Shown here: piece by piece, positions 34,946 to 36,742 of the stretch | Layout of the letters: the number at the start of each line of letters is the position of its first letter | Numbering within the stretch: the stretch's first letter is position 1 | Sequence record: OZ035810.1 | Length of the DNA stretch: 64,000 bases | Direction: 5' to 3' (one strand) | From: Gamaleyavirus AN24P2 | Position numbers and translations under genes: made by a program | Notes under the pieces: model-generated | What the model was told of the DNA's origin: nothing | What the model saw: the letters and a program-made list of their open reading frames with translations, nothing else | Databases searched by the model: none

Positions 34946-35389
34946 TTAACTACGTTTGAGGCCAGCGAACAGTGAAGGCTTAGCAGCAGGTTTCTCTGCT
35001 GGTTCTTCAGCCTTAACTTCTTCCTGCACAATTTCTTCTTGTGCTTCTGGTTCAGTCACTGCTTCTTCTTCAGGTTCCGACGTAGAACTCTCGTTCACTC
35101 CACCAGTAGAGGTCTGGGTTTCTTCTACCTTTACCTCTTCAACTACATCTTCCGGCTCTGGTTCTACCGGACGGTGTTTAGCTTCCTGAGGGTTCTTACG
35201 AGAACGACGTGTCTTCTTCTCTACCAAGGGTGGAGTATCATCGTTATGACTTACCTCTTCATTAATACCAACGGAGGCTGTACCATCTGCATTGATGACA
35301 ATACTAACATCACCAGCAAGATTGATTTGATCATCGACATAAGCTTGTACAGCAGCTTCTACTTCGGACTGGTTCAAAATGATTTGCAT
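34946..35389 (-). CDS. acidic hypothetical protein with SSB-like C-terminal tail
   Basis: 147 aa; C-terminal two-thirds Glu/Pro-rich; ends KPSLFAGLKRS, resembling the SSB C-terminus GGKSLFGKR. Confidence 0.45.
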   Translation of the reverse strand: MQIILNQSEVEAAVQAYVDDQINLAGDVSIVINADGTASVGINEEVSHNDDTPPLVEKKTRRSRKNPQEAKHRPVEPEPEDVVEEVKVEETQTSTGGVNESSTSEPEEEAVTEPEAQEEIVQEEVKAEEPAEKPAAKPSLFAGLKRS

Positions 35390-35390
35390 A

Positions 35391-35945
35391 TTACGCCTTT
35401 AATAACTTAATTAGGTTCTGGAAAGCTGGGAGATTTACACCAGCGTGGATTGCACCGATTGCATCAGCTAAATGCTCATTCTTATTCAGAAGTTTGCCCT
35501 TCTTATCTGTGAGCCAGTTGGCTTCAGGATAGATGGCATGAGCAGCACGAATCATCGTGTCCTTGGATGCAGTTTTATCGCCTACCAGTGCAAGTTTGTT
35601 TTCAATTGGGGATACTTCAAAGATTGGACAACCCAATGCACGAAATGCACCTATTAATCCTACGCATACTCCATAGGATTTCATACCGTTAGCAGACTGA
35701 GAGCCTACTGGTACTTCTACGAATACTGCTTTAGCAGACCGTAACCATTCCTCACAACCAAGAAACAAATCATGAGCGGCTTGTATATCTTTGGAGTTGG
35801 TTCGAACTTGTTTGTTGTGGTCAACTTCAGTTTGAACCAGTTTAAGTTCGACCTGCTCGAAGACGCCGGAATCAATGTCCAGCATCCCACGAGCTAAACC
35901 CCAATTGCGGAGACTAACGTCTGCACCGACAATTGGGATTTTCAT
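35391..35945 (-). CDS. RuvC-like Holliday junction resolvase
   Basis: 184 aa; N-terminal IVGADVSLRNWGLA (RuvC motif I-like), internal FVEVP, C-terminal HLADAIGAIHAG resembling the RuvC DAADALAIA motif. Confidence 0.55.
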   Translation of the reverse strand: MKIPIVGADVSLRNWGLARGMLDIDSGVFEQVELKLVQTEVDHNKQVRTNSKDIQAAHDLFLGCEEWLRSAKAVFVEVPVGSQSANGMKSYGVCVGLIGAFRALGCPIFEVSPIENKLALVGDKTASKDTMIRAAHAIYPEANWLTDKKGKLLNKNEHLADAIGAIHAGVNLPAFQNLIKLLKA

Positions 35946-36742
35946 TAACGTTTACCGAACAGTGATTTACCACCAGCAGGAGTAGTACCTGTGCCAGCAC
36001 CTGGTTTAGGAGGCAAGCCACCTTTGCCATTACCACCAGCAGAACTCTTGGTCTTGTCGCGAGTTTTGCCTTTGTTCTTTTCTAACCATGCTGCATAGAA
36101 TACTGCCAGTTCCGGGGTCAGTTCTTTCTCAGCCTTCTCTGCTTCCTGAGCCTCAACGACTGTGACCAGCAGTTCCGGGTGAAACACTTTCTGAATCTCG
36201 TTTACTTCACGAGTTTCACCGGAGTCAACGTAACCATTGTCACCTTTAACCTGCTTAGCTTCCAGAATCTTTTCCAGAGCAAAGGTAACGGTCTGTCCAA
36301 CCAGTTCAACTGGAACCATGACAGACTTATTAACTTCTGCTTTAGCATCGAAATCGTAGACTTTAACAATCTTCTCTTCGAAATCTGCTTCAGGCAGTTC
36401 AGTACCAGTTGCCATCAGCATCATGTCATTAATGGCAGTGTAGCCAGGCAGGAAGTACTCTTTACCGTTCTTCTCGTAAGTTGGCTTGTTGCCTTTAGCA
36501 TTACCGGAAGTGAAGTACACCTGAGCACGAAACTCACCAGCAGGTACACCATCTGAGTTCTTCAAGTCTTCAATAATTAACTGCATCCAGTCTGCACCGG
36601 AGTCAGCTTTACCTACATAAGCTACTTTTACAGTACCGGTGTAGATATCTGACTCCTTTGCACCGAAGCCACCACCACCAAGGGAGTCTTTTACAGCTTC
36701 AACGTTTTTGGTTTTTTCTTTCAAGTTACTGAACAGGGACAT
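35945..36742 (-). CDS. ssb: single-stranded DNA-binding protein (N4 gp45-like)
   Basis: 265 aa, the same length as N4 SSB; position between the replication genes and the late module; Gly-rich tail ending SLFGKR. Confidence 0.6.
   Translation of the reverse strand: MSLFSNLKEKTKNVEAVKDSLGGGGFGAKESDIYTGTVKVAYVGKADSGADWMQLIIEDLKNSDGVPAGEFRAQVYFTSGNAKGNKPTYEKNGKEYFLPGYTAINDMMLMATGTELPEADFEEKIVKVYDFDAKAEVNKSVMVPVELVGQTVTFALEKILEAKQVKGDNGYVDSGETREVNEIQKVFHPELLVTVVEAQEAEKAEKELTPELAVFYAAWLEKNKGKTRDKTKSSAGGNGKGGLPPKPGAGTGTTPAGGKSLFGKR

Follow-up and report, generated by a model that had tools for sequence, protein, structure and literature searches.

Why should two unrelated proteins, encoded two genes apart in an N4-like phage, end in almost the same short peptide? 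This question is raised by a stretch of 64,000 nucleotides from Gamaleyavirus AN24P2 (sequence record OZ035810.1, hereafter called the window), a relative of phages G7C and N4 whose region of interest is 92-96% identical to that of many G7C-like coliphages. On the minus strand of the window lies the gene for a 265-residue single-stranded DNA-binding protein (SSB; 35945-36742), the orthologue of N4 gp45 (N4SSB), which matches PHROG 743 ('single strand DNA binding protein') over residues 1-264 with an expectation value (E) of 4e-88. It is followed on the same strand by the gene for a 184-residue RuvC-like Holliday-junction resolvase (35391-35945; PHROG 159, E 2.9e-42), the orthologue of N4 gp46 and of gp60 (Bes1) of phage Ab09, and then, 1 nt beyond the gp46 stop, by the gene for a 147-residue gp47-like protein (34946-35389; PHROG 7641, 'unknown function', E 8e-68), whose family includes Ab09 gp61 (Bes2). 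The SSB ends in GGKSLFGKR (35948-35974, core K-S-L-F-G), a tail that closes a Gly/Ala/Pro-rich disordered linker (residues ~234-260), and gp47 ends in KPSLFAGLKRS (34949-34981, core P-S-L-F-A) behind an acidic disordered linker (residues 80-135; 34985-35152). The preliminary description of this DNA had singled out these two tails and an acidic protein two genes downstream of the SSB, which agrees with the translations, with the resolvase gene as the single gene in between, and with the composition of gp47, whose isoelectric point is 4.32 and whose 56-residue linker stretch contains 20 Asp/Glu versus 3 Lys/Arg. The tail core is conserved in both protein families, the two tails co-vary, and gp47 stays beside a resolvase or is fused to it; we think it likely that this peptide serves for docking, with one putative receptor common to both proteins.

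The conservation of the SSB tail reaches well beyond this phage. A total of 132 SSB homologues was found, and all of the 120 listed, which reach down to 37% identity, have [LI]F among their 16 C-terminal residues, with a Ser before it in 111/120 and Lys at position -3 in 82/120; between one and seven residues follow the Phe. In an alignment of 121 SSB sequences the only invariant positions are D19, Y34, W219 and F262, the conservation of S260 and L261 reaching at least 90% despite the 25 low-complexity Gly/Ala/Pro-rich residues that precede them. The window SSB is 59% identical to the cluster containing the SSB of the N4-type Escherichia phage OLB145, and N4 gp45, which is also 265 residues long, ends in ...AAKSLFGKK, so that the two tails, KSLFGKR and KSLFGKK, are nearly identical. 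From the SLF-G-KR motif proposed at the outset, the core stood and can be written [KR]-S-[LI]-F-[GAS], whereas the trailing K-R or K-K proved to be clade-specific, being limited to the Enquatrovirinae and some other lineages, and many SSBs end in ...SLFG, ...SLFS or ...SLFA.

The same core was found at the end of the gp47-like proteins. A profile of their ~52-residue N-terminal domain detected 2,515 clusters at 50% identity (E<=1e-3), a figure that requires an exhaustive search of representatives, as a word-indexed search with the N-domain alignment gave 7 proteins. This domain carries the signature MQITLNQxEIE...AGRGENG..A.IDI over ~50 residues, and that of the window protein (residues 1-45, 35255-35389, starting MQIILNQSEVEAAVQAYV) is a divergent member, with 25-33% identity to the others in the alignment. 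The 20 C-terminal residues include [LIMV]F in 144 of 154 gp47-like representatives, 132 of these 144 having Ser at position -2, and those without the motif are mostly visibly truncated or frameshifted. E9 and F141 are the only invariant columns in an alignment of 134 gp47-like sequences, and the linker carries a net negative charge in all representatives scored, namely those in which it exceeds 10 residues. The close relatives of the window protein, including those of G7C, KP8, Moo19 and Jgk1, end in K-P-S-L-F-A-G-L-K-R-(S/N).

N4 itself appears at first sight to be an exception. In the N4 reference record (NC_008720), gp47 as annotated (11679-12113 of the locus extracted from it) ends in ...KPNLLCLQV, and the +1 frame reads ...AKPSLFAGLKR. 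Phage PMBT57, which belongs to the species N4 and is 98.3% identical, has one extra A in the run GAAGAAGAAAAAG and encodes a 147-residue gp47 ending in AKPSLFAGLKR; the A missing from the N4 record lies at about 32,045, in the run GAAGAAGAAAA(A)G. Because PMBT57 encodes the tail with one more A, the N4 reference record hides the tail motif behind a 1-nt frameshift that goes back either to faulty sequencing or to a genuine mutation of the laboratory strain.

Bes2 of the Litunavirus Ab09 could be placed in the same family. Ab09 gp61 matched the gp47 family profile with an HHalign probability of 91.6% (E 8e-7), and Ab09 gp60 matched the same PHROG 159 as window gp46 (E 5e-49). The gp61 gene directly follows this RuvC-like gene and gp61 ends in GGSLFS, the Ab09 SSB ending in PASLFS. 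The position and tail of gp61 and the HHalign match therefore identify the acidic protein of the window as a member of the Bes2 family, even though the identity between the two proteins is low (24% over 49 columns). Both consist of an N-domain, an acidic linker and an SLF-type end and are encoded at the same site after a RuvC-like gene, but the evasion phenotype was reported only for Ab09 gp61 in Pseudomonas aeruginosa. According to the accessible text of a 2026 preprint on gp60 and gp61 (bioRxiv 10.64898/2026.06.04.730250), gp61 evades Thoeris I/II and CBASS II-A in P. aeruginosa without binding the signals, is described as unrelated to known families and as mostly low-confidence, and shows a phenotype that Bes1 by itself gives as well, the authors suggesting that the Bes proteins act perhaps through phage development; neither the tail, nor its match to the SSB, nor RusA fusions are mentioned in that text.

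Both tails were present in all of the other Schitoviridae loci examined (24/24), the gp47-like gene lying one to three genes downstream of the SSB gene. These loci (N4/PMBT57, G7C, KP8, Moo19, Jgk1, LIT1, Ab09, KPP21, pVa5, JA-1, DFL12phi1, JWAlpha, RHph_X2_28B, KpCHEMY26, Paxi, Nepra and the metagenomic loci L017-L024, L027 and L028) come from phages of Pseudomonas, Vibrio, Achromobacter, Stenotrophomonas, Pectobacterium, Klebsiella, Rhizobium and Dinoroseobacter and from metagenomes. The alignment of C-termini across related phages, which had been put forward as a check on the tail motif, thus recovered it in 120/120 listed SSBs, in 144/154 gp47-like representatives and, on both proteins, in the 24 other loci, and because the motif is kept across both families and all of these loci, chance is excluded. 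A scan of every stop-to-stop open reading frame of at least 50 residues in the window for LF-x(0-3)-[KR][KR] within the last 15 residues returned three frames, two of which are the SSB and gp47. The third is a putative gene of 85 codons on the plus strand (1682-1939) whose product ends in SYLFFRKK.

The flanks of the core vary from lineage to lineage, and they do so in step in the two proteins. The SSB and gp47-like tails read SLFS and SLFS in LIT1, SLFG and SLFG in pVa5, SLFDD and SIFDVD in DFL12phi1, SDLFL and LDLFS in Nepra, SLFAD and SIFDT in L018, ALFGKK and SIFGFGKK in L020, KSLFN and KSLFN in L024, and DDLFD and DFEFEEDDS in L027. When six flanking positions were scored with BLOSUM62 in 20 lineages, the cognate pairs reached 168 versus 9.7±28 for shuffled pairings, and none of the 20,000 shuffles attained that value (p<5e-5); the lengths beyond the Phe are also correlated between the two tails (Spearman 0.94). 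Flanks also differ among phages of a single host species, as seen in LIT1 versus KPP21 and in KP8 versus KpCHEMY26.

Could this likeness nevertheless be a functionless coincidence, a by-product of low complexity or the result of gene conversion between neighbouring genes? Low-complexity linkers do precede the tails, the two tails of the window have 10 nt (TCA CTG TTC G) in common, and a spontaneous deletion in Ab09 is bounded by a 7-nt repeat located in the two tail regions, so that these regions can recombine. However, the invariance of the Phe extends over hundreds of clusters of two unrelated protein families, [SGD][LI]F is expected by chance in the last 10 residues of only ~1% of proteins, and the C-terminal residues of N4SSB are functionally essential (PMC4496689). 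As to gene conversion, the Ser codon classes (AGY versus TCN) differ between the two tails in pVa5, DFL12phi1, L018 and L022, which argues that the match is kept at the protein level and rules out recent gene conversion as its sole cause. A functionless origin of the likeness is thus effectively refuted by the conservation of the tails.

Two loci of this set deserve a separate mention. In L027 (8466-9221 and 10001-10252) both tails are acidic, the SSB ending in ...VEDDLFD and the gp47-like protein in ...AIDFEFEEDDS, and they recall the classical bacterial SSB tip; flank charge can thus switch jointly in the two proteins. Locus L024 is part of the Salinimonas marina chromosome (CP064795, 1,740,641-1,757,381, inside a 3.77-Mb record) and holds a complete N4-type module with primase, Sak4-like ATPase, SSB, RuvC-like resolvase, gp47-like protein and virion RNA polymerase genes. 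N4-like phages are regarded as strictly lytic, and the module in this chromosome may represent an integrated or carried element or else result from misassembly.

How might such a peptide work? In the mechanism that we propose, the [KR]-S-[LI]-F-[GAS] peptide would act as a short linear docking motif on a flexible linker, with which the SSB (gp45) and gp47, both proteins of the replication-recombination module, would bind one site on a common partner. The idea that these conserved tails are docking peptides, already expressed in the preliminary description, is supported by the invariant Phe, the disordered linkers, the co-varying flanks and the presence of two to four motif copies in some relatives. 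Nepra gp80 (21687-22475 of its locus) contains four DLF copies in its disordered region (TTDLFADP, AADLFAEP, SLDLFSDP and VLDLFS), and two copies each are found in the disordered regions of the gp47-like proteins of DFL12phi1 (20810-21742), L018 (7245-7919) and L020 (6832-7848); because of these extra internal copies, a short linear motif is indicated rather than a tip that depends on the terminal carboxylate.

The structural models are consistent with peptides carried on flexible arms. The AlphaFold2 model of the SSB has a predicted local distance difference test (pLDDT) score of 83.7 overall, with values above 85 for the core (residues 30-233) and below 50 for residues 234-260, which are disordered; its best fold match in the PDB, a weak one, is the oligonucleotide-binding (OB)-fold protein PrgE (E 1e-4, template modelling score 0.28/0.50), and bacterial SSBs are also matched weakly. 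For gp47, a small alpha/beta domain is predicted (helix 7-21, strands 29-32 and 38-41, pLDDT about 70-85), followed by the linker, which lacks secondary structure and has pLDDT about 50-60. No match at E<1 was obtained when the gp47 model was searched against PDB folds, a profile search of the SSB against PDB sequences gave nothing significant, and no Pfam family matched the SSB, gp46 or gp47.

The SSB carries a third SLF-like copy, which had been overlooked in the preliminary description, at its N-terminus (SLFSNLK, 36719-36739). The form M-S-(x)-[LI]-F-x-N-L-K is conserved in most homologues, and the model places a helix of moderate confidence at residues 5-10 (mean pLDDT 76 for residues 1-10). 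This motif may mediate SSB-SSB cooperativity. It looks like the gp47 tail in its long form, SLFA[GN]LK, and in the genomes with long tails the gp47 tail shows 14/50 identities to the SSB N-terminus versus 5/50 to the SSB C-terminus. This resemblance is a general one, since no cognate-specific co-variation was detected (p=0.16), and the idea that the gp47 tail mimics its cognate SSB N-terminus was consequently rejected.

The N-terminal copy also bears on the suggestion that the receptor lies within the system itself, in such a way that the SLF peptides would bind the SSB core, for a cooperative filament or for auto-inhibition, or the gp47 N-domain, and that gp47 would be recruited to SSB-coated DNA or would read the SSB tail. 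The helix predicted at this third motif, the PrgE-type fold match of the SSB and the co-variation of the flanks, which is expected with a fast-evolving phage receptor, agree with this suggestion, as does the gp47 tail, whose pLDDT of 79 versus about 50-60 in the linker suggests that it lies on the N-domain in the model. On the other hand, the SSB C-terminal tail is not confidently docked on the core, with pLDDT below 50 on either side of L261-F262, and the N-terminal motif lacks the cognate co-variation with the gp47 tail. An internal receptor appears rather improbable.

A second line of evidence concerns the resolvase. The gp47-like reading frame lay downstream of a resolvase gene in every locus examined, and in most of them directly adjacent to it, whichever type of resolvase was present. 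The enzyme is RuvC-like in the window and in N4, LIT1, KPP21, JWAlpha, Paxi, Nepra, L017 and L021-L024, and it is a free RusA-like protein in pVa5, KpCHEMY26, L018, L019 and L028. In DFL12phi1, JA-1, RHph_X2_28B and L020, RusA continues at its C-terminus into the entire gp47 module, with N-domain, linker and tail, and such RusA fusions were also observed in 7/150 gp47 family representatives among those listed. The RusA part of the fusions was assigned by PHROGs 34 and 1682; no Pfam family was matched, and the profile search against PDB sequences gave marginal hits to YfiA/histone at E>0.03. Because the neighbourhood survives the replacement of the resolvase by a non-homologous one, and because gp47 has been fused to RusA recurrently, an adaptor or tether is favoured. 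Judged from gene order and fusions, the tie to the resolvase would fit such an adaptor better than the pure competition for, or mimicry of, the SSB docking site that had been suggested earlier.

According to this proposal, gp47 would be a bivalent adaptor and not a simple decoy: its ~45-residue N-domain would engage the Holliday-junction resolvase or the DNA substrate of this enzyme, and its tail, at the end of the acidic tether, would link this cargo to the same hub as the SSB tail. The adaptor step taken by itself, with gp47 tethering the resolvase, seems to us nearly evenly balanced between acceptance and doubt, doubt being slightly ahead. For the complete proposal, with a shared docking motif, a common partner and gp47 as a tethering adaptor, our judgement leans slightly to the positive side.

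Several observations speak against this proposal. Since the RuvC-like and RusA-like folds are unrelated, a specific contact between the N-domain and the resolvase would need two origins. In the accessible text of the Ab09 study, gp61 alone complements the Ab09 deletion also without the RuvC-like gp60 (bioRxiv 10.64898/2026.06.04.730250), and because Bes2 works without Bes1, gp47-like proteins must have a resolvase-independent activity, which weakens the adaptor step and leaves the shared docking untouched. Moreover, residues 131-147 of window gp47 (34949-34999, minus strand), with no secondary structure assigned, reach a pLDDT of 79, similar to that of the N-domain, which in the model may mean that the tail packs on its own N-domain, in auto-inhibition or self-association, and not on an external hub. 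The tail pair of the window is itself among the less similar ones, the cognate partner ranking 16th of 20, and the common partner of both tails stays putative.

Which partner could be the hub? We place a phage replication or recombination protein first, for example the Sak4-like gp44, the polymerase or the helicase, then the β' subunit of host RNA polymerase, and last the SSB or the gp47 N-domain. The Sak4-like RecA-core ATPase, orthologue of N4 gp44, is encoded directly upstream of the SSB gene (36783-37535, minus strand; Pfam AAA_24, E 1e-10; PHROG 124, 'Sak4-like ssDNA annealing protein', E 2e-49) as part of the same conserved module, and the order primase, Sak4-like ATPase, SSB and resolvase is the same in the window, in N4 and in 20 or more other loci. 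In phage HK620, binding of Sak4 to SSB-coated DNA needs the last six residues of the cognate SSB (PMC5928155). A phage-encoded receptor is thus supported by the tail flanks, which differ within one host species and co-vary within genomes, by the Sak4 precedent and by the constant Sak4-SSB-resolvase-gp47 module, and gp44 is a candidate receptor for both tails.

The case for β' comes from the N4 literature. A review from the Rothman-Denes laboratory (PMC4496689) bears out the earlier statement that the N4 SSB activates late transcription by the host enzyme: the C-terminal residues of N4SSB are essential for late activation, binding to single-stranded DNA is dispensable, and N4SSB contacts the conserved C-terminus of β'. 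The gp47 tail might therefore take the site of the SSB tail on β' and throttle or time the SSB-dependent late transcription, the linker and the N-domain adding affinity or regulation. In agreement with this possibility, the tails have a common core and co-vary, and, according to the accessible text of the Ab09 preprint, Bes2 acts without Bes1 and without binding the signals, so that reduced or delayed late expression would fit its broad evasion, the side tail fibre being a late protein. However, a decoy for RNA polymerase is hard to square with the fusion of the whole gp47 module to RusA in several lineages, and the tail-less RuvC-like Bes1 alone gives the same evasion phenotype in that text. 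Different flanks within one host species (LIT1 and KPP21, KP8 and KpCHEMY26) would also be unexpected for a nearly invariant host site, and SSB-driven late transcription is known for N4 only. Taken together, we regard competition at β' as unlikely, although it merits somewhat more weight than the internal receptor.

The core of the tails also recalls the motif that binds the β sliding clamp of the host (consensus QL[SD]LF), and the tails might recruit DnaN in this way. The [SD]-L-F core fits positions 3-5 of the consensus, with S in 111/120 SSBs and the D variant in Nepra (SSB ...QSDLFL; gp80 ...VLDLFS) and in L027; the motif is likewise terminal and occasionally present in multiple copies, no clamp gene was seen in the phage loci examined, the clamp pocket is conserved across hosts, and the archaeal resolvase Hjc binds PCNA through its C-terminal tail. 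In contrast, the tails lack Q1 and the hydrophobic position 2: position 1 is R, G, K or T in the SSBs and P, R or K in the gp47-like proteins, and at position 2, 82/120 SSBs have K and 10/120 have Q, the gp47-like proteins having K, R or T. On these grounds the tails were rejected as members of the clamp-binding motif. Furthermore, N4 gp8 is reportedly an inhibitor of the host clamp loader, and N4 replication has been reported to be independent of the Pol III holoenzyme. Recruitment of the host clamp is accordingly the least probable of the receptors considered here, and we give it very little credence.

Docking tails on SSBs and tails common to two phage proteins, as in T7 gp2.5/gp4 and in the T4 clamp-binding proteins, are already known principles. 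T7 gp2.5 (an SSB) and gp4 (the helicase-primase) have similar C-terminal tails that end in Phe and bind the same sites on T7 DNA polymerase. The tails described here would resemble them in that an SSB and a second replication protein of one phage bear interchangeable C-terminal docking tails with a critical Phe, but the T7 tails are acidic and have the Phe as last residue, whereas here K/R precedes the core, 1-17 residues follow the Phe and the second protein is no helicase. The T4 sliding clamp, gp45, receives binding tails common to the polymerase gp43 and to gp33 and gp55 and couples replication to late transcription; the likeness lies in a short hydrophobic C-terminal peptide common to replication and late-transcription proteins, with competition and coupling at one hub, and the difference in the lack of a clamp gene in the loci examined and in the hub reported for N4, which is RNA polymerase β'.

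Closer to the protein itself, the bacterial SSB tip (DDDIPF) and the HK620 SSB-Sak4 pair also combine a disordered linker with a terminal hydrophobic tip that recruits genome-maintenance proteins, and in the present loci a Sak4-like gene always lies directly upstream of the SSB gene. Unlike DDDIPF, the present tip is basic (K-S-L-F-G-K-R) and does not end in Phe, being acidic only in L027; the SSB that carries it lacks a Pfam SSB match and shows weak OB similarity, and a protein that is not an SSB bears the tip as well. The nearest system is N4SSB, with an orthologous SSB of 265 residues in both phages, the same gene order and a nearly identical tail, the difference being that the published work on the C-terminal determinant covers, in its accessible text, N4 alone. 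In the literature searched, which did not comprise the primary N4SSB papers (PMIDs 7673246 and 9054361), the tail motif, the pairing of SSB with gp47/Bes2, their co-variation, the resolvase fusions and the N-terminal copy were not described.

A published Ab09 mutant offers a possible exchange of the two tails. In the accessible text of the preprint (bioRxiv 10.64898/2026.06.04.730250), the Cas3-generated Ab09Δgp57-61 has lost positions 41,096-42,899, and with them the final 51 bp of the SSB gene and the greater part of gp61, and it grows well. In the Ab09 sequence (HG962375), the 7-nt direct repeat CCGGCAG is present at 41,096 and 42,899, 1,803 nt (601 codons) apart, and the two copies fall in the tail-coding regions of SSB (gp57) and Bes2 (gp61), at the published deletion boundaries. 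A deletion from one copy to the other would preserve the reading frame and would possibly yield an SSB ending in ...GRPAPAAKQAAPASTGGSLFS, i.e. with the Bes2 tail, whereas a deletion exactly at the printed coordinates (1,804 nt) would give an out-of-frame fusion without the motif.

As regards annotation, the gp47/Bes2-like family is spread over at least eight PHROGs (7641, 18842, 27655, 7564, 27468, 20916, 33948 and the C-terminal half of 14238/21721), which are labeled as of unknown function or, owing to the fusions, as 'RusA-like'. 'RusA-like' annotations of about 250-340 residues in N4-like phages thus correspond to RusA plus a gp47-like module. Downstream of gp47, at 33226-33383 on the minus strand of the window, ARAGORN detected a tRNA-Ile gene (anticodon aat) and an adjoining tRNA-like gene with an abnormal anticodon loop, and tRNA clusters occupy the equivalent site in the relatives KP8 and Moo19.

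N4 is the classic model of a phage whose SSB switches on late genes through the host RNA polymerase, with the C-terminus of the SSB as the key element. According to the present analysis this element is probably a family-wide [KR]-S-[LI]-F peptide, of which a co-evolving copy is present on a second, otherwise uncharacterized family, which includes the newly reported anti-Thoeris/CBASS factor Bes2. At least eight PHROGs of unknown function and the C-terminal halves of 'RusA-like' fusions are thereby united into one family. In a broader and rather speculative picture, the SLF tail would serve as an address label that leads to a single hub at which replication, recombination and late expression are coupled across the Schitoviridae, and gp47/Bes2 would displace or adjoin the SSB on β' or on the replisome and so delay or dampen the late proteins. 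The side tail fibre, a late protein, sets the strength of Thoeris II activation in the accessible text of the Ab09 preprint (bioRxiv 10.64898/2026.06.04.730250), and if the address-label picture were true, it would explain the broad evasion of Thoeris and CBASS by Bes2 without any action on the signals, through a lower dose of late immune activators such as this fibre. Two questions become directly testable in this way, namely what the N4SSB tail binds and how Bes2 works.

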